Below are positions 131-13,405 of a DNA stretch of 64,000 bases, one piece after another; the first letter of the stretch is position 1, and every line of letters starts with the position of its first letter. Source of the DNA: Aquificaceae bacterium (GTDB lineage Bacteria > Aquificota > Aquificia > Aquificales > Aquificaceae); assembly GCA_037925075.1 (NCBI GenBank), contig JAXSNR010000002.1, positions 1 to 64,000 on the forward strand, given 5' to 3'. Position numbers and translations under genes: made by a program. The notes beneath the pieces were generated by a model. It was not told the DNA's origin. It did no database searches and saw only the letters and a program-made list of their open reading frames with translations.

Positions 131-664
131 CTACAAAGCCACATAAAAATTTCCCTGTCGGGCGATCCTTCCCTGTATTTCAAAGTCTGAAAGCCTGAGC
201 ATAAGCTGGGAGGGTTCAAGGTTTGTAAGCAAAAGGAGCTCATCAAAGCTTTTGGGGGTGGAAAGGAGGTCAAGAAGTGGATCTTTTTGAGCATTTGCCT
301 CTGGAATGCTCTCAAAGAGGTCAAGGGGACTGTGTATGACCTTGGCTTTTCCACTGTTTATGAGGCTTACACAGCCAAGCCATCTTTCGCTTGCGGAGTT
401 TCCCACGTAAACCCAAAGGGGCTTTTTTTGCCTTATTGCGTACTCCGCGGTTATAAGCGCTCCGCTCTTCTGCCCAGCTTCTGCAATTACCACCGCCTTG
501 GATATGCCACTTATCAACCGGTTTCTTCTTGGAAAGCTAAATTCCTCTGGGCTTGCATCGGGCAAGAACTCCGACACAAAAACCATGCTTTCACTCCTTA
601 GCCTCTGAAGATATTGGGGCATCCTCAAAAGACCCATGCCAAGAAAGCAAACACTAAAACCACC
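131..664 (-). pseudogene. dprA: dprA (Smf) 3' fragment, interrupted by transposon
   Basis: Motifs SEF..., FPRRNRLISG, EAGQKSGALITA and a C-terminal wHTH. Joins the 12921-13405 fragment in frame (ELGG|FSVCFLGMG) after removing one CCACC. Confidence 0.93.
660..664. repeat. 5-bp target site duplication CCACC, first copy
   Basis: Identical CCACC at 12921-12925, flanking the TGT...ACA termini. Confidence 0.95.
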
Positions 665-820
665 TGTAATTTACACTATAAAATGCAAAAATCTATAAAT
701 ACAGCATTTCCTTAAGTCTTTGATATATAAGCAGTTTCTTAAAGTTAACCTTACATCTTTTAATGCAACTATTAACATGATTAAATGTTATAATACTGCA
801 TATAACACTATAAAATGCAA
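665..820 (+). repeat. tnsA-proximal transposon end with spaced TnsB-binding-like sites
   Basis: TTACACTATAAAATGCAA 671-688, TTACATCTTTTAATGCAA 751-768, degenerate TAACATGATTAAATGTTA 773-790, TAACACTATAAAATGCAA 803-820. Confidence 0.85.
713..725 (-). promoter_or_regulatory. IHF-consensus-like site between first and second TnsB sites
   Basis: Minus strand TATCAA-AGAC-TTA matches WATCAANNNNTTR. Confidence 0.45.
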
Positions 821-837
821 TTATAAGTAAAAAAATA

Positions 838-866
838 TTGACACTGCAGATATGTCTGGTTATAAT
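838..866 (+). promoter_or_regulatory. Consensus sigma70 promoter for the tnsABC-tniQ operon
   Basis: TTGACA (838-843), 17-bp spacer, TATAAT (861-866); ATG at 877. Confidence 0.85.
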
Positions 867-876
867 TATTCATAGG

Positions 877-1476
877 ATGATCAGGAAAATTGGGATAAAG
901 AGCAGGGGTATAAGAGCGAGGTTTTACAGTGCCAAAATGAAACGTATTGTGTGGTGTGAAAGCGAGCTTGAAATGAACTTCTGTCTAAGCCTTGAATTTG
1001 ATAGAGAAGTAGAAAGCTATAGAGAACAACCAGAAAGATTTGAACTAATAAATTATGTTCCAGACTTCCTCGTAGAATACAGAGGAGCTAAAAAAGTGTT
1101 TTATGAGGTGAAACCAAACAAGCTTCTATGCAATCCCCACATATTAAAAAGGCTTGAGGAAGCAGAAAAGATAATTACTTCAAAAGGTTATGAATTCAGA
1201 ATATGGACAGATAAAGCTTTAAGCGATACAAGACTTACAAATTACAAATTCCTATATCGTTTTCAAAAAAAACCTAATAGGTATAAAGATATTTCAGTCA
1301 AAGTTTTAAATCTAATACGAAATGACATAGATACCCTTAATGAAATAATCAAAGAGTTTCCTAAAGAAGAAGCACCGCATGTTATACCAGTAGTTTGGCA
1401 CATGGTATTTGCTGGTATGTTAATTGCCGATCTTGAAAAACCACTTACTAATGGTTCAAAGCTATGCTTAGGCTAA
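877..1476 (+). CDS. tnsA: TnsA endonuclease
   Basis: CESELE, YREQP, YVPDFLV and FYEVKP motifs. Start placed at ATG 877 because the ORF-track TTG 838 is the -35 box. Confidence 0.9.
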   Translation: MIRKIGIKSRGIRARFYSAKMKRIVWCESELEMNFCLSLEFDREVESYREQPERFELINYVPDFLVEYRGAKKVFYEVKPNKLLCNPHILKRLEEAEKIITSKGYEFRIWTDKALSDTRLTNYKFLYRFQKKPNRYKDISVKVLNLIRNDIDTLNEIIKEFPKEEAPHVIPVVWHMVFAGMLIADLEKPLTNGSKLCLG

Positions 1477-3311
1477 AACCAGATAACATAATAAAATATA
1501 ATGGCAAGCAGTGGATTATAGATGGTTACTCAGATGGTAAGATTATTGTAAGATCGGTTGATGATAGAAATAAAGTCCTACTTTTAAGTATAGAGGAAAT
1601 ATGGTCAAGTGATACGAAAGATAAAGAAATAGAAAATATAAATGATCCTTTAACATCAGAACAAAAAGACATCGCTATTAAGAGATATAAACTTATAGAA
1701 CAACTACTACACAAAGAGACAACAACCGAGGAAGTTAAACAGGTGGCTAAAAATGCAGGGGTTCACCCTGTGACTATATATAGATGGATAAAACGATACA
1801 ATACCTATGGTTTAGCGGGTCTTGCAGACTATTCAAACAAAAGAGGCAATAGAAAACTAAGGTTACTACCAGAACAAGAAGAAATCATTGAAAATATGAT
1901 AAGCCTTTATTATCTAACTCCACAAAAACTTTCTATAAAAGCGGTATATGAAAAAATAGTTCATGAATGTAAAAAGAAGCACATAGACATACCACATTAC
2001 AACACAATAAGGAATAGAATAAAATTTATGGATAAGAAGATTGTATCAAGGGATAGATATGGCAAAGAGATTACAGCAGTAAGAGGACAGTTTGAAGCTA
2101 AATATCCCCTTGAAATAGTGCAGATAGACCATACCAAGCTTGACATAATCGTTGTTGACCCTATATTCAGAAAACCTATAGGAAGACCGTACATAACCGT
2201 TGCTATTGATGTTTATAGTAGAATGATATACGGCATACACATATCTCTTGATGCACCATCTTATTTCAGTGTTTCAAGAGCAATCCTTATGGGCATAAGA
2301 CCCAAAACACAATACCTTGAAAGTCTCGGAATAGAAGGTGAATGGCCTGTTTTTGGATTATCTAAGCATATGGTTATACACACAGATAATGCAAAAGAAT
2401 TCACAAGTGACTCGCTCGAGTATGCCTTAATAAGTCTAAACATATCACAAGAATTTAGACCAAAGAAAAAACCGAATTACGGAGGCCATGTGGAAAGGTT
2501 CTTAAGAACTCTTAATGAAGAACTTCACAAACTCCCTGGCACCACTTTTTCAAAACCTGATGAGAGAAAGAACTATGATCCAGAAAAAGAAGCAGTTTTT
2601 ACTCTTGAAGAGTTAGAAAAGTATATAGTTGAATGGATAGTTAATGTTTATCACAAAAAACATCACAAGGGTATAAACATGTCACCTGAAGAAAAATGGA
2701 TAGAAGGTATATATGGAAACAATAAAAAACCAGGGGTAGGCTATCCAGACTTACCAGAAAGAGAAGAACTTGCAAAACTTGAAATAGAACTCATGTATAC
2801 AGAAAAGAGAGCAATAACAAGAGAAGGTATAAAAATAGATTATATAACTTACTGGCATGAAATACTAATACCCTATATAAACTCTGCAAAGAATAAAAAA
2901 TACACAATCAAAGTAAATCCCCTTGATATAAGCCAAGTATACTTCTACGATGAAAAAACAAAGCAATATTACAAAATCCCTGCAAAGAACTTTGCTTTCC
3001 CCAAAATGAGTAGATGGGAACTTAAAGAAGTCATAAAATATCTTAGAGAAAATAACGAGAAGAAAATAGATGAATTCAGTATAGCAACCGCATACGAAAA
3101 ACTCATGTCTATTAAAAGCGAAGCAGTTCTTAAATCCAAAAAGGCAAGAAGAGATCTAACAAGAATATATGAACGAACAAGGAAAGAAGGTTATCTAAAA
3201 ACTATTCATAAAGCCTTAAAATCTGATGTAAACAGAGAAAACGAAAAATATGAAAAGAATAGTAACGATGTTAAAATTGACATAAAAAAGATGCCAATGG
3301 AATATATGTAA
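1464..3311 (+). CDS. tnsB: TnsB/TniA-like DDE transposase
   Basis: HTH (VHPVTIYRWIKRY), DDE motifs QIDHT, HTDNAKEF and GHVERF, Mu-type C-terminal region. Confidence 0.93.
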   Translation: MLRLKPDNIIKYNGKQWIIDGYSDGKIIVRSVDDRNKVLLLSIEEIWSSDTKDKEIENINDPLTSEQKDIAIKRYKLIEQLLHKETTTEEVKQVAKNAGVHPVTIYRWIKRYNTYGLAGLADYSNKRGNRKLRLLPEQEEIIENMISLYYLTPQKLSIKAVYEKIVHECKKKHIDIPHYNTIRNRIKFMDKKIVSRDRYGKEITAVRGQFEAKYPLEIVQIDHTKLDIIVVDPIFRKPIGRPYITVAIDVYSRMIYGIHISLDAPSYFSVSRAILMGIRPKTQYLESLGIEGEWPVFGLSKHMVIHTDNAKEFTSDSLEYALISLNISQEFRPKKKPNYGGHVERFLRTLNEELHKLPGTTFSKPDERKNYDPEKEAVFTLEELEKYIVEWIVNVYHKKHHKGINMSPEEKWIEGIYGNNKKPGVGYPDLPEREELAKLEIELMYTEKRAITREGIKIDYITYWHEILIPYINSAKNKKYTIKVNPLDISQVYFYDEKTKQYYKIPAKNFAFPKMSRWELKEVIKYLRENNEKKIDEFSIATAYEKLMSIKSEAVLKSKKARRDLTRIYERTRKEGYLKTIHKALKSDVNRENEKYEKNSNDVKIDIKKMPMEYM

Positions 3312-3323
3312 AGGAGATTTGCC

Positions 3324-4184
3324 ATGGATAGAGATGTGCTTTGTGAAATGCCAATAGAGGATAGAATTAGACATATTCAAAGAGACTGGTTTGTTTTATA
3401 CCCAAGAGCAAAAATTATTCTGGACAAACTATCTGTCTTACTTGAATACCCTGATAATGTAAGACCGCCATCCTTTATGATAATAGGAGACCCGAATAAC
3501 GGCAAGACCTCTATAGCTAATTACTTCCTTAAGAAGCATACACCATACGAAGAACCAGATGGAATAAAAATACCTGTTATTATGGTGGAAGCACCAGCGA
3601 AACCGAGGTTTGAATTACTTCTTGGTGACCTGCTTCTCAAAATGGGTGTCCCTTTTAGACATTCGGAGTCTGAGGGTGCTAAACTGGAAAAACTCTTCTA
3701 TTATATGAAGGAGCTTGAAGTAAAACTTATTATCGTGGATGAAATACATAACGTACTTTCTGGAACTGTCCTTAAGCAGAGAGAGTTCATGAACAGTTTA
3801 AAAAGAGTCGTCAACGAAAGCAAGAGACCGTTAGTTCTTATAGGGACTAAAGATGCACTCCATGCTGCAAGCACGGATTATCAAATACAATCAAGGTTTA
3901 GGCCTGAATTTTTACCTCTTTGGAAGTTTGATAGTGAGTTTCTTTCTCTACTCTATACTATTCAGGAAAGTCTTCCACTCAAAAATAAAAGTAATCTCTT
4001 AGAAGAAAAACTTGCAAGAACTTTATATGATTATTCGGAAGGTATTCTTGGAGAGCTTGTAAGCCTTATCAAAGATCTTGCCATATCTGCTATTCAAAGC
4101 GGAAAAGAAAAAATAGATTTACGACTTATCAAGGAAATAAACTGGGTTCCGCCTTCTAAAAGAAGAGAAATACCTATTTTATAA
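3324..4184 (+). CDS. tnsC: TnsC/TniB AAA+ ATPase
   Basis: Walker A GDPNNGKT, Walker B LIIVDEIHN, QIQSRF; SD AAGGAG upstream. Confidence 0.92.
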   Translation: MDRDVLCEMPIEDRIRHIQRDWFVLYPRAKIILDKLSVLLEYPDNVRPPSFMIIGDPNNGKTSIANYFLKKHTPYEEPDGIKIPVIMVEAPAKPRFELLLGDLLLKMGVPFRHSESEGAKLEKLFYYMKELEVKLIIVDEIHNVLSGTVLKQREFMNSLKRVVNESKRPLVLIGTKDALHAASTDYQIQSRFRPEFLPLWKFDSEFLSLLYTIQESLPLKNKSNLLEEKLARTLYDYSEGILGELVSLIKDLAISAIQSGKEKIDLRLIKEINWVPPSKRREIPIL

Positions 4185-4195
4185 GAGTTTTTAAG

Positions 4196-5671
4196 ATGGA
4201 GAGAACAGTAAGATACGCAAAAGGACCAGCACGCTATGTAAGTGGATATATTGGAGAACTATACAGATCTCCAAACTACAGGCTTCCTGTTAAGTATGAA
4301 CCTTTTGAAGGTGAACTATTTTCCTCATTTATATCAAGGGTAGCATTAAAGTATGACATATCCGCAAGACACTTTATTAGTCTGATTCTAGGTGATAGAA
4401 AGTTTCTGCAGATTGGGTATAGAGATCCAGACCTTTATATTAAGGACGAGCTACTTAAAATTATTGCATTCAAAACAAGGAATGAGCTTGAACAACTATA
4501 CGATACAACACTCAAAAGCTATCAAGGTATACTTTTTGAAAGCGTTGAGGAAAGTGGGAGAACAATAAATACAATTCCATACATAGACAGATTCAAAAAC
4601 GAAGGGGGAGTTCCTCAAAAGTATGGAGTAAAAATATGCCCCTTATGTCTTAAGGAAGAAAAAGAACCATACTTTAAAAAGTTATGGAGGATTTCTTTTT
4701 ACAATGCCTGCCATATACATGGAATAGTTTTGCTTGATAAATGTCCTAAATGTGGAGCTCCAATAAGAATAATACCCACATTCAGTCAAGAATTTGCTTC
4801 GTGTTTTAAATGTGGGTTTAGCTTCAAAAATGTTTCTGAATATACAAGAGCAAGCAATGAACATACTAACGCTATAAGAGGCCTCTTAAAAGTCATTGAG
4901 GACGGTTACTTCCAAACTGCAGATGGAGATAAGGTAAATTCTTTAGCCTTTTTCATAGCTTTCAGGTTCATGGCAAGATGGGTTGCGAAGGTAATGAGAA
5001 CAAAAGATAGAAAATGCTCAGAAATAAATTTAGCAGTAGAATATCTATCACTTGAGGATAAGTTAACTATATACACGACTGCTTGGGAAGCATTTAAGGA
5101 ATTTCCTTATAGCTTTAGAAGGTTTATATTAGAAAGTGGTCTAACAATAAGAAAGATGGCAAGCATTTACTACAAGAATATAAAAGTAGACAGAAAAGGT
5201 GAAAGGTTTTTCAAACATCTTCCTTATTTTCTAGCTAAGGAGCTTGAGCGTATGGTTCCACCTTATGATGCACAGGTATATACAAAGGAAGGGCTTAAAA
5301 GCATGGTCTTTTGCCTCTTAGATAAAGGATACCCACCATCCACTGGCTTTCTCACGAAGTTCAATCAGACTATATTTGACAAAGGTAAAGAACTATTGGA
5401 AATATTTATTGAATACTATACGCCCGAACTTCCCAAGGATATGGAGGAATTCTTTAGGGAGAAGGAAACCGCAAGTGCAGATGAGGTTCTCAGATACTTT
5501 AAACATATAAAACCTGTTGATGTTATTAGGGTAATGAATTATATGCTAAAGATTGGTAAGCTAAAAATACTCCAAGGGTCAGAATATATTGCAAAGGACA
5601 GACTATCAATAAAAAGACTAAGTGGACCAGTTACACGTCAAAATATGGCAAAGATAGTATTAGGGATCTAA
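4196..5671 (+). CDS. tniQ: TniQ/TnsD-like target selector with long C-terminal extension
   Basis: PFEGELFSSFISRVA TniQ N-terminus; Zn motifs CPLC, CHIH, CPKC and CFKC; 491 aa, i.e. TnsD-sized. Confidence 0.88.
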   Translation: MERTVRYAKGPARYVSGYIGELYRSPNYRLPVKYEPFEGELFSSFISRVALKYDISARHFISLILGDRKFLQIGYRDPDLYIKDELLKIIAFKTRNELEQLYDTTLKSYQGILFESVEESGRTINTIPYIDRFKNEGGVPQKYGVKICPLCLKEEKEPYFKKLWRISFYNACHIHGIVLLDKCPKCGAPIRIIPTFSQEFASCFKCGFSFKNVSEYTRASNEHTNAIRGLLKVIEDGYFQTADGDKVNSLAFFIAFRFMARWVAKVMRTKDRKCSEINLAVEYLSLEDKLTIYTTAWEAFKEFPYSFRRFILESGLTIRKMASIYYKNIKVDRKGERFFKHLPYFLAKELERMVPPYDAQVYTKEGLKSMVFCLLDKGYPPSTGFLTKFNQTIFDKGKELLEIFIEYYTPELPKDMEEFFREKETASADEVLRYFKHIKPVDVIRVMNYMLKIGKLKILQGSEYIAKDRLSIKRLSGPVTRQNMAKIVLGI

Positions 5672-5746
5672 ACTTGCCACGTAGGTTCATAAGTTGCAAG
5701 CCTGCAGTTTTTTACAAAAGATACAGAAAGATTTATCTGAACTTAC

Positions 5747-8701
5747 TCACTGTCTTTCTCTCAACAACTTAATAGTATTTTCCAACCTACTCTTATCAAT
5801 GTGTCTATCTATTAAGTTTAAAAGTTCTTTCCAATCTTCTATTTTAGAAAGCTCCTTTAAGGCAGCATTGTTATCTTTGATGGGTAAAGATTTCATAATA
5901 TTGTGCAAATTTTCTGAAAGAGTAGCTACTTCTATATTCCAATAGTATCCAGCATAATGTAAATTCAACATATCTATAACTCTTAAAACTCTGGAATGTA
6001 TATTCCTCGCAAAATGGGTGCCTACTTTGTGTATGAGGTAATTTATAATTCCTGAATAATAGTAAGCAGTTTCTTTATTTGAAAATTCCATCCAACATAA
6101 AGTGCTATCAGCAAGATAAAGATTATCCTCAGGACATTCGAAAACTGCAGAAGAAAAAATCCTTACTACCCTATGTATAACATAAAACTTACCCTTTTTC
6201 ATAAACTCTGGTTCTGATTGTTGAACTTCCTTTCTTAACTCATTAATTTTTGCCAATTCATCTCCTGATAAATTAGCCTTATTACGCATAATAATAAGGT
6301 ATAAAAATTCTATTAGGTCCTTCTTATCCTTAGGTGAAATAATAGCAGGATATGCCTCCAGCAGTTTAAAGGGTAAAACTCTATCTGCATAAAACACTCT
6401 TTTAATGTAATTATTGAAAGATACACCCTTGCGATCGGGTATTAGCACGTTAAGATTTATATCTTGGTTCATACCTTCAAGCCTGCCAATGCCTGTATTG
6501 GGGTTATACCTAGTCAAAATCAAGCCTGCATATTTAATAGCACCTCGCTTCTTAATCCCCCCTTTGAGACCTCTAATATAAACTCCATTAACCTTGACTC
6601 TCTCTGCAAAAGCAGGCTTCTCATATCCTTCGCTCTTGGCTATTTGTCCAAGGGTTTCAACACTTTTTTCAACCTGATCTTTGCTTACCTGATTCAGTCT
6701 TATATCTTTAGATGTATAGTCCTCAGAGGTCTTATAATAACTTCCTTCAAGACTTACTTGATAAACTTCTTTACTTCCTTCACCTACTACTATGACGCCC
6801 GGTGGTATACCATGTTTAAAAACATCGTTGCTAAAAACATAAACACTAAAAGGCTTTTTCTCTAAGCACTTCCAAACCATCAAAGAACCTACTCCGTAAG
6901 TGCCAGAATAAGCAATACTTGATGGAACAATAAAAATACCTTTCACATTTGTTCCGGTTCCATACTTGCAGACAAAATATCCAGATAAGTCACCGCCTGT
7001 TAAAATACGCCCACTCAGATTGTTTCCACGAAGGAAATTCTTTATGATTATTCCATTTATACCCTTTAACCTGCTTAGATTTATCCAAGGTGGATTTGTA
7101 GCTATTGCATAATCTTGTAATCTTCCTATCATGTGCTTAGCTATACTTGATACAACAAGCAAAGCCCATATTCCATCTCCATGCCGAGCTATATCTTTCG
7201 CAATCTGTCTCTTGTTTATCATAACAGACAACTTATCAAAACCTATTTGTTCTTGAACTTCTGATAGTTTTTTAATAAGCAAATTAAGTATTTCATTTTC
7301 CCTCTCAGTAATATCTTTTATATTTAGAGTTTTCTCATCCACCATATCAAAAATCTCCTCTAAGGTGCTTTCCAATAAAGGAAGCATAGAAAACCTATTC
7401 AGATTGGATGCTAACGCCTGCACGCTATCTACATAATCTTCTTCAATACCAATTTTCTTAAGTTTTTTTATAATATCATAACTATAGAAGCTACTATCCG
7501 CATAAAAAACATAAGGAACAACATTGTTATCATAACCTCCAGCCATTCTATAGGCTATAAAGAGTCCTGCTCTTGCCAATACCACTGCAAGTGGGTTAAT
7601 GTCAAAGCCTACAACTTCCTGTATAGCATTATCTGGATCTTTCCCCGCCTTTACTTTTCTATAGAAAGCCTCTATTAAAAAAGTCCCAGTTCCACAGCAT
7701 GGGTCTATAACAAGCTTTTCTATCCAAAGAGATTGCTCAAGCCTATCCATACACCATTTAGCAAACCATGTGGGTGTATAGTATTCTCCCAACGCTCGTC
7801 TATCTTCTTCGCTTATAAGCTCTTCATACAGAAGCCTAAAAAGGTCTTTTATCCGTTCATTCTTGTAGTTAAACCTTGATACCCTACTCTCTATAGCGTT
7901 ATAAAAATCATCCAAAATCTCTATTTCCTCCCTTGTCAAAAAACCTTTCCTCTCAAGAATAATGTGCCAATTAAGAAAAGGAAGCGAATACCCTTTCTTA
8001 ATACGTTTTTGTTTTATCTCTATTTCCTCTTCTATATATTGCTCTCCTATGACGCTTAGAGCGGTTGCATTTAAAACTGTATGAAGTATATAAAGCTCCT
8101 CCGCCTTTTCTTCTCTCAACTTAGGATAAATCTTATCCAGCTCTTTTCTATATGATTTGTAAATCTCTCTTATATTTTCCTTGTGTTTCCTAAAAATTTC
8201 AAGTAGTTTATCGTAGAATAATGTCTTAACCTCTCTTAGCAAGCCAGTGAAAATTTCAAGGTTAAGATCTAACTTTTCTTCTGCTATCCTTTTTGCATAA
8301 ACTATAAAATCACTCCAATTAATATTTATCCATTGCCCATTAGAATATAATTCAAAAACAAGCTCGTCAGGACTTCTACTGAAATATCCTTCTCTGTTTT
8401 TTGCATCTTTATGATAGCAAAGTATTGCATATTTAACTTCAATTGCAAGCTTACTTTTAATATGCTCAATATAGTCCTCAAGCTGCCTTCTGCCATTCTG
8501 AGCATCTTGTCTAATTGGTTCTATTTCAACTATGAAGGAAAAATCTCTGCTGGAAATGTCAAGTCTCTTACCACCTATGGCATATTCAGTTGTGAAAGTG
8601 ATTGGAGAAACCTCTGTCCTTAGTATCTCTAACAAGTAAGCCTTTATAACATCATGTAATTGTCCCATCCGATAGATTATTATATCAGAGGGTGATGGCA
8701 T
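5747..8701 (-). CDS. Fused restriction endonuclease / N6-adenine DNA methyltransferase (Type IIG-like)
   Basis: N-terminal PD-(D/E)xK-like RLDI...IVEIE, LGEYYTP, motif I IDPCCGTGTFL, GFDINP, motif IV NPPW, long C-terminal putative TRD. Confidence 0.8.
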   Translation of the reverse strand: MPSPSDIIIYRMGQLHDVIKAYLLEILRTEVSPITFTTEYAIGGKRLDISSRDFSFIVEIEPIRQDAQNGRRQLEDYIEHIKSKLAIEVKYAILCYHKDAKNREGYFSRSPDELVFELYSNGQWININWSDFIVYAKRIAEEKLDLNLEIFTGLLREVKTLFYDKLLEIFRKHKENIREIYKSYRKELDKIYPKLREEKAEELYILHTVLNATALSVIGEQYIEEEIEIKQKRIKKGYSLPFLNWHIILERKGFLTREEIEILDDFYNAIESRVSRFNYKNERIKDLFRLLYEELISEEDRRALGEYYTPTWFAKWCMDRLEQSLWIEKLVIDPCCGTGTFLIEAFYRKVKAGKDPDNAIQEVVGFDINPLAVVLARAGLFIAYRMAGGYDNNVVPYVFYADSSFYSYDIIKKLKKIGIEEDYVDSVQALASNLNRFSMLPLLESTLEEIFDMVDEKTLNIKDITERENEILNLLIKKLSEVQEQIGFDKLSVMINKRQIAKDIARHGDGIWALLVVSSIAKHMIGRLQDYAIATNPPWINLSRLKGINGIIIKNFLRGNNLSGRILTGGDLSGYFVCKYGTGTNVKGIFIVPSSIAYSGTYGVGSLMVWKCLEKKPFSVYVFSNDVFKHGIPPGVIVVGEGSKEVYQVSLEGSYYKTSEDYTSKDIRLNQVSKDQVEKSVETLGQIAKSEGYEKPAFAERVKVNGVYIRGLKGGIKKRGAIKYAGLILTRYNPNTGIGRLEGMNQDINLNVLIPDRKGVSFNNYIKRVFYADRVLPFKLLEAYPAIISPKDKKDLIEFLYLIIMRNKANLSGDELAKINELRKEVQQSEPEFMKKGKFYVIHRVVRIFSSAVFECPEDNLYLADSTLCWMEFSNKETAYYYSGIINYLIHKVGTHFARNIHSRVLRVIDMLNLHYAGYYWNIEVATLSENLHNIMKSLPIKDNNAALKELSKIEDWKELLNLIDRHIDKSRLENTIKLLRERQ

Positions 8702-8990
8702 TTAGGAGAAATAAACTGGCGTGAAAGAGGAAATATGGGAACTGTTTCAAAATTTGTGTAAATTCTGCCATACTTCATAACATACCCACAAAAAGAATTA
8801 TTAACTGGGACTATATCCTCCTGCCATTCAACTCCTAACACCTTATAATGGCTTGAGGCATAAGGTCTTTGAGTAGCTCACTGAACTCCTTGCGGTATTG
8901 TTCTACTTTCTCCTTGCTTGGCTGTTTTATGTTAACACCTCCTTACTTTATTTTTACACAATGGATGAAACAGTCCCTAGTCCCCTCTTT

Positions 8991-9017
8991 GGTATAATAC
9001 CCATATGGGATAATACC
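8991..9017. promoter_or_regulatory. Imperfect palindrome overlapping a -10 box in the divergent RM / DUF5131 gap
   Basis: GGTATAATACCCAT-ATGGGATAATACC dyad containing TATAAT at 8993-8998. Confidence 0.5.
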
Positions 9018-9039
9018 ACATGCAGGAAAGGAGTTTAGC

Positions 9040-9795
9040 ATGGCTTATAGAAGTTACATTGAATGGACAGAGGCAACATGGAACCCCTCTACAGGTTGCA
9101 CAAAAGTATCTCCCGCTTGTAGAAATTGTTATGCAGAGAGGCTATCTCTAAGGCTACAAGAGATGGGCATAGCAAAATACAAAAATGGCTTTAAACTAAC
9201 AATCCATGAAGAGGAACTTGAAAAGCCTCTTAAGTGGAAACAGCCAAAGATAATCTTTGTGAATTCTATGTCAGACCTATTTCACGAAGACTTGCCTGAG
9301 AAGTTCATTGAAAGAGTATTCTCCGTTATGAACAAAGCCCATTGGCATGTTTTTCAGGTTTTAACCAAGAGAACAAAAAGACTTGTAAGGCTTGCAGATA
9401 AGCTATCATGGACACCTAACATATGGATAGGGGCAACAGTGGAAACACCAAGTTATTTTTTCAGGATTGAAGACCTAATGCACATAAAACATGCAAGTGT
9501 AAGGTTTTTATCCCTTGAACCTCTTTTGTCAAAAATGACAGGGATTGAAAATTATCTTAAAACAGGACTTATTAACTGGGTCATAGTTGGCGGAGAAAGC
9601 GGGCCAGGAGCAAGACCCATGAAAAAGGAGTGGGTTATTGAGATAAAAGAACTATGTAAGCAATTTAATATTCCCTTCTTTTTCAAACAGTGGGGAGGGG
9701 TTCAAAAGAAAAAGACAGGAAAAACGCTTGATGGAGTAGAATACACTGAAATGCCTTCGGTTTTAGAGTCAAAGTTATCGCATTTGCATGTGTAA
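9040..9795 (+). CDS. DUF5131 / Gp37-Gp68 family three-Cys (radical-SAM-like) protein
   Basis: IEWTEATWNP.TGCTKVSPACRNCYA (CX6CX2C), NSMSDLFH, WVIVGGESG, FFFKQWGG. Confidence 0.9.
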   Translation: MAYRSYIEWTEATWNPSTGCTKVSPACRNCYAERLSLRLQEMGIAKYKNGFKLTIHEEELEKPLKWKQPKIIFVNSMSDLFHEDLPEKFIERVFSVMNKAHWHVFQVLTKRTKRLVRLADKLSWTPNIWIGATVETPSYFFRIEDLMHIKHASVRFLSLEPLLSKMTGIENYLKTGLINWVIVGGESGPGARPMKKEWVIEIKELCKQFNIPFFFKQWGGVQKKKTGKTLDGVEYTEMPSVLESKLSHLHV

Positions 9796-11124
9796 TTAAC
9801 TCAAAAACTTAACTTTTATATTGTAAAGGTCTTTTATACCTCTAATAGATGAAGACTTCAAAGAGCCTTTCTTAGAAATATACTCATTATCAGTCTCCGT
9901 ATAATCTATCAAGTTTTCCTCTTGCATTTTATTTAAACACTTTATTATATTCTTTATAGAAAGAACTTCTTCTTCCACGTAGGATTCTACAAAACTTTTA
10001 AAGGATAAAATATTACTCCATACGTGCCTTACTATCTCATACAATGTGAACTGATTGGGTGCTTGTTTTATATCTAAATGCTTACTTCCAAATTGTTTTA
10101 CCTGTAGACATAATTTGATAAAAATTGGCTTTTGCATATTCGTAGGTTTAGAACTTAGCATAGAAGTGACAGCTTCAGCATACTTCTTAACAAAGGCTTC
10201 TGCAACTGAAACTGCTCCTGTCACCAATATTAAGCCGAAATACTCTTGCTTTATTGTTTTATCCTTAACCTGTATAGGAATTGTTGCCGTAAGAAAAAAC
10301 GAGTTAGATCTTTTAAGAGATAGGAAAAGTTCTGACATTCGGTTGCTAACTCTTTCTATCATATGTCTAGTTTCAAGTTTAGAGAACTCTTCAAATTCCT
10401 TATCGCTTAGACCCAAAAATGCTTTTATTCTCTCTTTATCAGAACCCATTTGTCTAGATTTCATTCTCCTTATATGTCCGAAATTAATGAACATTAAAAT
10501 ATCATACTTCCCAACCACGCCTTCTAGTAAATCATATATATCATTAAATGACGCTTCTAAATTAAATGGGTCTATAAAAATTAATCCAAATTCTGATCTC
10601 CCAATCAGATCTTTGATGATGTCTTTCTCTTTTCCCCATTCACGGTATATATTGAACTTTATGCCTTTACGCACGCTTTCCTCGGTTTTATTGTGAAAAT
10701 CACTTAGAAACTTTTTGAGATTTTCTCTATAGCTTTCCTCTTTTTCACATAAAATAAGGTTTAAAGACTCAAAATAAACTCCTCCCGCCTTACCTCCTTT
10801 TGTCTCCAAGAATTCTTTAAATATTTTATAGGCATATAATGGAGTTCCATATCTATCTTCATCATTTAAAATTTCATCAGGATTAAACTCAAGCTCTTCT
10901 TCTAAAGCAAATATTCCTTGACCTGCATACAAATCAACGTAAGAATAAATCATATCCTTGATAGAATAATTCGTAGAGTTGCGTTTTTTGTTGCGATTTT
11001 TTACGATAATATTTGCCGTACCAAGAGAAACTTCAAGAACTTCTCTTAGTATTTCATGTTTAATTAGGGTTGATATCTTTTTCTTTTCCCGATTGAAAAA
11101 GTCCTTCCCGTCACTCTTAATCAT
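9796..11124 (-). CDS. tcmP: Three-Cys-motif partner protein (TcmP-like, methyltransferase fold)
   Basis: TLIKHEIL, YVDLYAGQG, LCEK, IFIDPF, YDILMF motifs; adjacent to DUF5131. Confidence 0.78.
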   Translation of the reverse strand: MIKSDGKDFFNREKKKISTLIKHEILREVLEVSLGTANIIVKNRNKKRNSTNYSIKDMIYSYVDLYAGQGIFALEEELEFNPDEILNDEDRYGTPLYAYKIFKEFLETKGGKAGGVYFESLNLILCEKEESYRENLKKFLSDFHNKTEESVRKGIKFNIYREWGKEKDIIKDLIGRSEFGLIFIDPFNLEASFNDIYDLLEGVVGKYDILMFINFGHIRRMKSRQMGSDKERIKAFLGLSDKEFEEFSKLETRHMIERVSNRMSELFLSLKRSNSFFLTATIPIQVKDKTIKQEYFGLILVTGAVSVAEAFVKKYAEAVTSMLSSKPTNMQKPIFIKLCLQVKQFGSKHLDIKQAPNQFTLYEIVRHVWSNILSFKSFVESYVEEEVLSIKNIIKCLNKMQEENLIDYTETDNEYISKKGSLKSSSIRGIKDLYNIKVKFLS

Positions 11125-11151
11125 AATCCGCTACCTCCTCAGGTATATTAA

Positions 11152-12795
11152 TCATTTTTTGCTAGCATTCCTTAGTCCCTCGTCTTTAATTATAGTTAAT
11201 AGCCTTTTACACCATGATAGCATAGCCTTGCTTGAAAATCTTGCGGGATGTCTCTTCAAATAGAAGGATAGCTTATGCCTGTTGAAGTAAGATTCTATAT
11301 CATCAATACTCACTCCACTTATATACTTCAATAGTAAGCGAATAGCTAAAATTCTATAGTTTTTTATGTTTCCCACAAGTATAAGTGTTGATGGACCTAT
11401 TTTTAGACCCTTTCTATCTATTTCAACTAATAATACATTCTTTCCATAGTATGAAAAATATGCATATATAAAACGCCTTCTAGACTTACAATCCACCTTA
11501 TAATCATAATGAGTAAGTTTAGAACATGGGCTCTTTTTTCTTTTACCTAAGGGAACTAATTCTGGTTCGCTTATATATATGTTTATGTTAAAGTTTTTTT
11601 GTAAAAAGTCCATGAGTCTTACAAAATCATTCATATCAAAATCCTTTTTACTTTTATCATCTCTTATTTTTGTTTCGGTTCTATATGCTTGTATATCTAT
11701 TGCATCTGATCTTAAGGACTTTTCCTGATTTATAGTAGCAATCATAGGCGTATCTTCACTTTTAAAAAACACATGCCTAAACTTACTATCTTTAACCTCT
11801 ATATACTCTATATCTAAGTCTATATGTGGATTTTCCCTTTGTTGTATCTCAATTCTTATGCCTGCAGATTTATATAGCTTGCCTGCAGGCATTTCTGGTA
11901 TATAGGTTTCTACAGACTCATCTACTATTGCTTGAGGAATAGCTATTGTTTTTTCCTCTTTAATTTCTCTTCCTTTAGTATGTCTTTTTCTTATTACTTT
12001 TACCTTTAAACTTTCAAGGGGATTAGGGCTAAAATTCTCTATTTCGTGTACATATAGATAATCACCTAATTTTTCATATCTTAAGGTGAAGTTAACAATA
12101 CCGTTTAAAGGTAATGTTGTGGTTATGTTTATATTTCCAAAAAGACCAAAGCCTTTAAACTTCTGAAGAGAATACTTTGCAAACTCACTTTTATAGAAAA
12201 ATGCGAGCAGAAGAGCATCCATATTAGCGTAACCAGGCTTTAGTTTTATCTCAATATAGTCCTCAGTTTCTCTTATGCTTTCGTAAGCAGATTCTATACT
12301 TCCTGAAATTATGTGTCCAACTATTCTTGATGATGTAAAAAAGAAAGTGCTTGCTATCAAGCTACATGGGAAGAGAAAATTTCCAATTTTTATTACATTT
12401 TGCTTAAGTATTTCTATATCAAAAGATTTTCTACCAGTTTTAGATATAAAGCTATAATCTACCAAGCTGGCATCTATAAGTTTCCCTAATTCAAGTCTTT
12501 CTTGCTCCTTTGGTTCTGGCACATAGAGTTCTATACTCTTTGTATTTCCATGCTTCTCCTTTACTTGAAGAACGCCTTTTTCTCCTATGTGATATTCTGT
12601 CCATGAAGGGTATAAAACATAGCCTAGTTCTGGGGGTATTTTCTCAACTACCAATAGTTTCTTATTTCCAACATCAACTTCAAACAAGGTTCTATAGTAA
12701 TATCCTCCACCCCCAGGTAATTTAACAAGGCTCATATAGTAAAGCAATCTTGCCTCCCTACTCTCGTATCTTCCAAGGCTTTTAAAAGGTATCAT
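11152..12795 (-). CDS. tnsE: TnsE-like target selector
   Basis: 547 aa. FPCSLIASTFFFTSS segment and C-terminal pattern DFVRLM...RRFIY...LLVEID...STLIL...KRHP resemble TnsE/TnsE_C. Sits at the distal end reading inward; SD AAGGAGG. Confidence 0.7.
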   Translation of the reverse strand: MIPFKSLGRYESREARLLYYMSLVKLPGGGGYYYRTLFEVDVGNKKLLVVEKIPPELGYVLYPSWTEYHIGEKGVLQVKEKHGNTKSIELYVPEPKEQERLELGKLIDASLVDYSFISKTGRKSFDIEILKQNVIKIGNFLFPCSLIASTFFFTSSRIVGHIISGSIESAYESIRETEDYIEIKLKPGYANMDALLLAFFYKSEFAKYSLQKFKGFGLFGNINITTTLPLNGIVNFTLRYEKLGDYLYVHEIENFSPNPLESLKVKVIRKRHTKGREIKEEKTIAIPQAIVDESVETYIPEMPAGKLYKSAGIRIEIQQRENPHIDLDIEYIEVKDSKFRHVFFKSEDTPMIATINQEKSLRSDAIDIQAYRTETKIRDDKSKKDFDMNDFVRLMDFLQKNFNINIYISEPELVPLGKRKKSPCSKLTHYDYKVDCKSRRRFIYAYFSYYGKNVLLVEIDRKGLKIGPSTLILVGNIKNYRILAIRLLLKYISGVSIDDIESYFNRHKLSFYLKRHPARFSSKAMLSWCKRLLTIIKDEGLRNASKK

Positions 12796-12855
12796 TTAAG
12801 CCTCCTTCCCAGTATGTTTCGGAATATCCCTCTAAGTCCCGCTTTAAGTAGTGGT

Positions 12856-12920
12856 TTGCATTTTTTAATGTTATATTTGCAATTTTTGATGTTAGTTTGC
12901 AATTTATGATGTTTGCTACA
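12856..12920 (-). repeat. Distal transposon end with three closely spaced TnsB-binding-like sites
   Basis: Minus strand reads TGTAGC-AAACATCATAAATTGCAA-AC-TAACATCAAAAATTGCAA-ATA-TAACATTAAAAAATGCAA. Confidence 0.9.
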
Positions 12921-12925
12921 CCACC
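12921..12925. repeat. 5-bp target site duplication CCACC, second copy
   Basis: Matches 660-664. Confidence 0.95.
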
Positions 12926-13405
12926 CAACTCTATGCACTCCCTATGACTGTGATAATCACAGCCAAAGGCACCACCAGAGCATACTCCGTACCCTTTCTC
13001 TACCACCACCTTTACCAATCTGCTTATGAACCACAGACTTTGCATATCTGGCCTTCTTGTGCCGACCACTCCAATCAGAGAGGTGTTTTTCAAATGTCCC
13101 GTATGAAAAAGCACCGGTGGTGGGTCCTCTATTTCCTTTAAAAGGGCAGGGTACTCGTGGTCCTCAAGGGTCATCCAGTTAAGGCCTTCCCTCTCCACCA
13201 CCTTAACAACTCTTTCTGGCTCAAAGCTAAGATCCCTCTTGAAAAAGGCATTTGTTTTCTCCTCACCTAAGATTTCCCTTAGCTCCTCACGGTTTGCGGA
13301 GAGTATGGAGCTTGCACTTCCAAACCTAAGCCAGAGCCTTCTTATGGAAACCTCACCAAGACCCCTTATAGCCTTTAACAAAAGCCAGTTATAAAGCCTT
13401 TCCAT
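12921..13405 (-). pseudogene. dprA: dprA 5' fragment; ORF reads on into the transposon end and stops at 12782
   Basis: SAM-like N-terminus, YPALLKEIEDPPPVLF, GVVGTR, SGGAFGCD; DprA similarity ends at ELGG. Confidence 0.93.

Follow-up and report, generated by a model that had tools for sequence, protein, structure and literature searches.

A Tn6022-like transposon in codon 161 of dprA in an Aquificaceae bacterium and the dprA DNA that its single long TniQ may read

INTRODUCTION

Tn6022, the AbaR backbone, encodes TnsABC, TniQ and TnsF, carries TnsE at its distal end and has its attachment site inside comM (PMC10293859, PMC11014353). The motif mapped for its selector, TnsF, is 10 bp long and lies in the Walker B codons; trimming of either flank lowered transposition, so the other flank is needed too (PMC10293859). 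The insertion was exact in all 10 of the 10 sequenced events described in PMC11014353. The gene comM is a known target of Tn7-like elements, but transformation does not strictly depend on it (PMC12378983). The loading of RecA onto incoming DNA is the task of DprA (PMC12378983), and a break in dprA should therefore block transformation more fully than a break in comM.

The way in which the ends of a Tn7-type element are oriented relative to the target selector is called incompletely understood in the field (PMC11406308). The same article gives, as a loose correlation, that the end with closely spaced TnsB sites faces the recognized sequence, and it names the end upstream of the tns genes the right end by convention.

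Here, we describe a Tn6022-like element that splits dprA in a 64,000-nucleotide stretch (referred to as the window) of contig JAXSNR010000002.1 from an Aquificaceae bacterium (GCA_037925075.1). A preliminary description of this DNA had proposed that TniQ recognizes the codons of a conserved DprA motif, SGxAxGxD, beside the insertion. We examined the element, its relatives and its insertions at the dprA locus. The results suggest that the element probably homes to dprA, and we tentatively place the DNA read by TniQ on the other flank.

RESULTS

Organization of the element and of the split dprA gene

The element runs from position 665 (TGT) to position 12920 (ACA) of the window and is a 12.3-kb Tn6022-like transposon of the Tn7 type (Table 1). 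It is bordered by two copies of a CCACC target-site duplication, the distal one centred on 12923. The TnsB-type sites are close together at the 12920 end, at offsets 9, 29 and 50, and spaced at the 665 end, at offsets 9, 89 (weak) and 141. Since the right end is the one upstream of the tns genes, the close-site end is here the left, tnsA-distal end. The genes for TnsB, TnsC and TniQ, recognized by Pfam, together with the TGT/ACA ends, the arrays of TnsB sites and the 5-bp duplication, mark the element as Tn7-like. Its tnsABC-tniQ operon with a distal TnsE homologue is that of the Tn6022 family, the TnsE_C match being weak (E 0.0064). The TnsE-like gene has the same position as in Tn6022 (PMC11014353), and a homologue was found at the same place in an element inserted in comM. 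None of the 8 main internal open reading frames matched a Cas family, as would be expected of a CRISPR-associated transposon.

When the element and one copy of CCACC were removed in silico, a single open dprA frame of 337 codons was obtained; the gene is thus split in frame, and both halves match DprA profiles (PF02481; TIGR00732). A replacement dprA was found neither in the element nor, as a second copy, elsewhere in the genome. The comM gene of this genome lies on another contig as a single open frame of 516 codons, so the attachment site in comM that Tn6022 uses is not the one occupied here.

Table 1. Features of the window (positions in nucleotides; the window element occupies 665-12920)
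Feature	Position	Strand	Remarks
Target-site duplication CCACC, tnsA-proximal copy	660-664	+	
Target-site duplication CCACC, distal copy	12921-12925	+	dprA nt 481-485, codons 161-162; same base in run X8
tnsA-proximal transposon end	665-820	+	spaced TnsB-type sites 673-688, 753-768 (weak), 805-820
tnsA-distal transposon end	12856-12920	-	three close TnsB-type sites 12897-12912, 12877-12892, 12856-12871
tnsA	838-1476	+	PF08722
tnsB (DDE transposase)	1464-3311	+	PF09299, PF00665
tnsC (TniB-type ATPase)	3324-4184	+	PF05621, E 2e-56
tniQ (491 aa), likely target selector	4196-5671	+	TniQ domain at residues 31-179
Cargo genes	5747-11124		N6-methyltransferase-type 5747-8701; DUF5131 9040-9795; TcmP-like 9796-11124
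TnsE-like gene (547 aa) adjoining distal end	11152-12795	-	weak PF18623 (TnsE_C) match, E 0.0064, below cut-off
dprA 5' half (161 codons)	12921-13405	-	PF02481, TIGR00732
dprA 3' half	131-659	-	PF02481, PF17782
SGGAFGCD codons of dprA	12956-12979	-	putative TniQ site of the preliminary description; doubtful
Alternative candidate TniQ site, dprA codons LGMGLLRMPQYLQR	600-642	-	+20 to +62 from duplication centre; tentatively preferred
Equivalent of run X10 distal-end junction, dprA nt 364-368	13038-13042	+	empty in the window

The dprA 5' half runs on through the transposon end for 46 codons (12782-12920), giving a 207-aa frame that ends within the start of the TnsE-like gene. Among the cargo, the DUF5131 and TcmP-like genes (9040-11124) are convergent and lie beside a methyltransferase-type gene of 984 aa. 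A 240-bp cargo stretch (8738-8977) sits between 25-bp imperfect inverted repeats; it had very high contig depth in sequencing runs X3, X7 and X8, although the genome studied here has a single copy. The stretch could represent a MITE or some other repeat of wide distribution, and one arm of its inverted repeat adjoins a relic transposon end in genomes G048, G061 and G062. Outside the element, the 3' half (46 bp) of a tRNA-Ala(CGC) gene was found at 82-127; the complete gene, at G000 C1:858574-858645, shares 98% identity with it. This half gene resembles the right-hand border copy left by a separate island that integrated in the tRNA gene, which adjoins dprA in many relatives.

Comparison with known Tn7-type systems

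The window element and Tn6022 have in common an operon for TnsA, TnsB, a TniB-type TnsC and TniQ, a TnsE-like gene at the far end, TGT/ACA ends and a 5-bp duplication. In both, a transformation gene is broken, with the close sites of the distal end facing its 5' half. In contrast to Tn6022, the element has no TnsF candidate, the gene after tniQ being that of the convergent methyltransferase; its TniQ has 491 aa with a C-terminal part of its own instead of 369 aa; and its target is dprA rather than comM, with three junction positions (see below) instead of one. A PF00589 search, made in place of one with a TnsF profile, gave a single match in the genome, far outside the element. Because there is no TnsF candidate and the insertion is not in comM, the element is not a member of Tn6022; its mode of action resembles TnsD-type homing, built onto the chassis of Tn6022.

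A single long TniQ-domain protein as likely selector and a conserved coding target are shared with the TnsD pathway of Tn7 (attTn7, at the 3' end of glmS; PMC11406308). However, Tn7 inserts outside the gene, whereas the gene is broken here, and the overlapping sites of Tn7 are at the tnsA-proximal end, whereas the close sites of the window element are at the distal end. Hunters of res sites, such as the Tn5053 family, scatter around their target. The Tn5053 family resembles the window element in having a TniB-type TnsC and one TniQ (PMC11406308), but the latter has TnsA, no resolvase and a chromosomal gene as target. In the archaeal Clade VIII Tn7-like element, TnsABC and TniQ alone also disrupt their target gene from within, and binding of TniQ was demonstrated for a single flank, according to the main text of a preprint (bioRxiv 10.1101/2025.07.27.667033). 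That target is a methylase gene of which the element brings a replacement copy, whereas no dprA is carried here.

Relatives of the element and of its TniQ

Judging from relatives of TniQ and TnsB, an element of this kind is present in 6 of 148 genomes of the order and in 7 of 178 of the phylum, its own genome counted. In all 6 other relatives of the phylum, dprA was absent from the fetched stretch around the element. Three of them are in comM (G132:C1, about 232,600-242,100; G138:C218; G173:C4; loci L009, L010 and L028-L030), one follows hisF, and no junction could be read for the other two. The G132 and G173 elements are at the same comM codon position as the Tn6022-type element L141; the genes after their tniQ encode a methylase and a DruA-family protein, not TnsF, and TniQ alone may reach the Tn6022 site in elements of this type.

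No further relatives were found in metagenomes (TnsB search), in genomes and viral contigs by TniQ alignment, or in viral contigs by TnsE alignment or by end patterns. A TniQ search of 401 genomes of the class around G178 gave a match in G178 only. Two plasmid elements with a related TniQ had no dprA or comM nearby. Contigs with a dprA-type element (L032; proteins P0155, P0157, P0163 and P0171) are filed in archaeal bins, one of them with an Aquificota dprA flank. These contigs are likely mis-binned, and counts of archaeal Tn7-like elements could therefore be inflated.

Among the best 150 representatives listed for TniQ, only two aligned over the full length (95% and 44% identity, the latter being P0006, on a contig of 17,143 bp, as long as that of the TnsE homologue P0004); for the others, the alignment ended by about residue 400 or earlier. 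The C-terminal part (about residues 345-491) aligns with the two nearest relatives only. Searches for family and Atlas matches were negative for this part, and a poor model from three sequences (pLDDT 43.5) matched no known fold at E 0.001. As there is no useful match, a role of this part as DNA reader is one that we infer.

Repeated insertion at the dprA locus

Junctions were surveyed in 7 of the 21 sequencing runs listed. In run X8, an element about 95% identical to that of the window (246 differences over 5,357 nt and 94 over 1,723 nt) has its distal end joined to CCACC followed by 15 nt of dprA; only the distal junction was read, the contig on the tnsA side starting at 664. The 20-nt flank had no mismatch with the empty allele of G047, G048, G049, G061 and G063, whereas 5 of the 20 positions differ from the window. 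The empty form of this allele is also present within run X8. The window and X8-type dprA alleles are about 77.5% identical overall, compared with about 95% for the elements, which indicates that the element has likely transposed and struck this base a second time. With an element far more alike than dprA and a flank that is host-specific up to the duplication, the data are most simply read as independent insertions at one and the same base. Transfer of a filled allele by homologous recombination was considered and ruled out, as the 15 nt beside the duplication are host-specific.

Two other junctions were found at this locus. The one in run X10 connects the distal end to dprA nt 364-368, which is 117 bp further 5', with a 30-nt flank that is exact in four of the G047, G048, G049, G061 and G063 alleles and has one mismatch in the fifth. 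In L032, which is 98.8% identical to the window element in its end region and 93% in the C-terminal part of TniQ, the junction is at nt 1109 of the dprA locus, 95 bp beyond the dprA stop and 628 bp later than nt 481; its flank is 99% identical to G061. Because a single junction was read in each of X8, X10 and L032, the duplication is not confirmed in these cases. The junction at nt 364 could have arisen by deletion, starting from an insertion in codon 161, but that at nt 1109 cannot be explained in this way. The locus thus has junctions at nt 364, nt 481 (twice) and nt 1109, and in four of four the close-site end points toward the 5' part of dprA.

These insertions have two marks of a TnsD-type pathway, namely the independent reuse of the same site (X8, one junction) and a fixed orientation. 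A third mark, one fixed position and distance, is lacking: there are three positions, of which two are single-ended and could be secondary events. Among the other runs, X16 and X20 had no full distal end, and X3, X7 and X17 had no junction among those listed. Related ends also occur away from dprA, once in L031, whose TnsE is 43% identical, and as a relic of 38 bp, derived from the distal end, that G048, G061 and G062 share at a single locus other than dprA (L066, L068 and L069, position 1501); the relic was likewise found in runs X8, X10 and X20.

Taken together, we consider it probable that the element homes to dprA. The part of the preliminary description that invoked targeted insertion therefore holds as likely, because the same base was used in a second host allele.

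Conservation and position of the candidate TniQ sites

The preliminary description had placed TniQ binding on the SGGAFGCD codons. These codons (TCT GGT GGT GCC TTT GGC TGT GAT, minus strand) are indeed 33-56 bp from 12923, on the side of the end with the three closely spaced TnsB sites. They were also said to be the most conserved part of dprA. To rank them, we used 20 dprA alleles of the genus and 44 of the phylum, the latter made up of 14 from the family of the window and the 30 best-scoring of 170 genomes matched. The 24-nt window of the motif ranked 255th of 988 in the genus and 93rd of 988 in the phylum; as eight residues, it ranked 11th of 330 and formed the fourth-best protein block in the phylum set. 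The superlative is thus not borne out. A block on the opposite flank, nt 489-512, had similar scores (0.82 versus 0.81 for the motif in the genus, 0.69 versus 0.70 in the phylum), and a conserved block less than 60 bp from an intragenic site is not rare.

Between the two alleles that were hit, the motif is identical at 18 of 24 positions and so does not exceed the average of 77.5% for the whole gene. On the tnsA flank, the mirror window (+33 to +56) has the same 18/24 and is mid-ranked in the phylum (499/988). The first 35 bp of the tnsA flank, dprA nt 486-520, are identical at 32 of 35 positions between the alleles, in the top 6-7% of windows. At the nt 364 junction, the SGxAxGxD codons are 61-84 bp away and on the tnsA side. 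The flanks of the three dprA-locus sites shared no word at a fixed offset, since random loci equalled them in 127, 146 and 130 of 200 trials; a motif common to these flanks was thus not recovered beyond chance.

The evidence from the family is divided between the flanks. In L141, which has the same layout as the window element, and in G132, the Walker B codons VLFLDE are at +45 to +62, on the tnsA-proximal, spaced-end side. The comM-inserted relatives have a geometry similar to that proposed for the SGGAFGCD codons: conserved codons for RPFRAPH occupy -54 to -31 beside the close-site end. At G024:C30:16377-16421 (L007), the spaced end of a related element is 20 bp after the hisF stop, which makes hisF a candidate attachment site on the basis of one case whose other end was not found; G024 has one of the two closest TnsB/TnsC relatives (45% and 56%). 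The rule that the close-site end faces the selector site, on which the preliminary description relied, is in print as a loose correlation, but in Tn6022, the nearest system with experimental tests, the mapped motif is on the spaced-end side.

The family evidence and the shorter stretch lead us to prefer the tnsA side. Given homing, we put the tnsA side at a little over half. As for the stretches themselves, 600-642 is tentatively proposed as the DNA read by TniQ, and this is doubtful for the SGGAFGCD codons.

DISCUSSION

The results describe a Tn6022-like element in codon 161 of dprA. The reading that we favor, with reservation, is that its single long TniQ reads dprA DNA, more likely at 600-642 than at the SGGAFGCD codons. 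TniQ would read the coding DNA, load TnsC and set the element at codon 161 in a fixed orientation, its own C-terminal part standing in as DNA reader for the TnsF partner of Tn6022; that full-length alignment was limited to two of the best 150 representatives listed is consistent with such a part. TnsC would be loaded toward the 5' part of dprA, a filament of the usual length leading to codon 161 and a longer one to the junction 117 bp on. The X10 junction, which lies on the far side of codon 161 from 600-642 and has the same orientation, fits this proposal. Codon 161 would thus follow from an anchor at 600-642, and so would nt 364 if the filament were longer, but nt 1109 would not: the L032 junction is on the wrong side of it and better fits an anchor on the 5' side. 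The printed rule of thumb (PMC11406308) also favors the other side, and transposition of Tn6022 was cut by trimming either flank (PMC10293859). Moreover, the +33 to +56 window of the tnsA flank does not surpass the motif in identity between alleles and is only mid-ranked, and the hisF case is a single element.

In a less probable model, binding of TniQ to the SGxAxGxD codons, 33-56 bp beyond the close-site end, would fix the insertion at codon 161; nt 364 would then reflect either a diverged TniQ or a deletion that later started from that end, and nt 1109 a long-range or TnsE event. Such an anchor accounts for codon 161 and for the side on which nt 1109 lies, 628 bp on, but not for nt 364, where the motif is on the tnsA side. 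In its favor are the same base hit in two alleles, the printed correlation (PMC11406308), the RPFRAPH codons on the same side in comM elements together with the need of Tn6022 for that flank, and the standing of the motif as a protein block. The opposite side is indicated, however, by the motif mapped in Tn6022 and by the hisF case, and both the identity of the motif between the alleles and its rank in the genus argue against these codons as the site. Of the preliminary interpretation, targeted insertion is thus supported as likely, but recognition of the SGGAFGCD codons is not supported.

Somewhat less probable still is targeting of the locus as a whole, through both flanks, one anchor with a variable TnsC filament, or recruitment by a protein or structure at dprA; it would give one orientation, a scatter over hundreds of bases and a preference for codon 161. 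Four junctions at three positions in one orientation, the lack of a shared word at a fixed offset and the requirement of Tn6022 for both flanks (PMC10293859) are in line with it. On the other hand, both outlying junctions are single-ended, the comM relatives are exact to the base, with G132, G173 and L141 at the same codon position, and so was Tn6022 in its sequenced events (PMC11014353).

Insertion that involves no sequence targeting is improbable. TnsE or TnsABC alone would then insert widely, the copies in dprA being kept since they block curing by transformation. The TnsE-like gene, the related ends away from dprA (L031 and the 38-bp relic) and the reviewed disruption of competence genes as a guard against curing (PMC12378983) agree with this, but selection cannot account for the same base in two diverged alleles, nor is the nt 1109 junction inside the dprA frame. 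A rough post hoc chance of 5e-8 for two more junctions within 745 bp in one orientation also opposes it, although this figure overstates the case because the 745-bp span was set by the data. An anchor at tRNA-Ala(CGC) at the dprA 3' end, with the element landing several hundred bases behind, is very improbable: the tRNA gene adjoins dprA in 12 of 19 genus alleles fetched, its 3' half is at 82-127 of the window and the tnsA end faces it, but distances of about 530 and 650 bp would be needed, and G047 and G048, with the L032-type flank, have their tRNA match about 11 and 13 kb off.

Homing into dprA, which we hold to be likely, was not found in print. A full-text literature search, outside which subscription papers lie, gave no paper linking dprA with TniQ in a Tn7-like element or transposon. 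The gene was absent from the main texts of PMC10293859, PMC11014353 and bioRxiv 10.1101/2025.07.27.667033 (the supplements of the preprint, with possible lists of att sites, being outside this scope), from three supplement files of PMC10293859 (one only in part) and from one file of PMC8649781, and it does not figure in a list of competence genes hit by mobile elements in the section drawn on from a review (PMC12378983).

With its five genes, the element offers a compact system, its host is a hot-spring bacterium, and two candidate sites of 25-45 bp compete. The host of the near-identical copies at the dprA locus is a related hot-spring bacterium. The knock-out of dprA would keep the host from removing the element via transformation. 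A broader proposal, which we regard as speculative and rather unlikely, is that the lineage switched from comM to dprA by acquiring a new DNA-reading tail on TniQ and homes to the locus, an anchor fixing the orientation while the point of insertion varies between one preferred codon and places as much as hundreds of bases off. If true, this would be a mode of loose spacing and fixed orientation in an element that shuts off transformation of its host.
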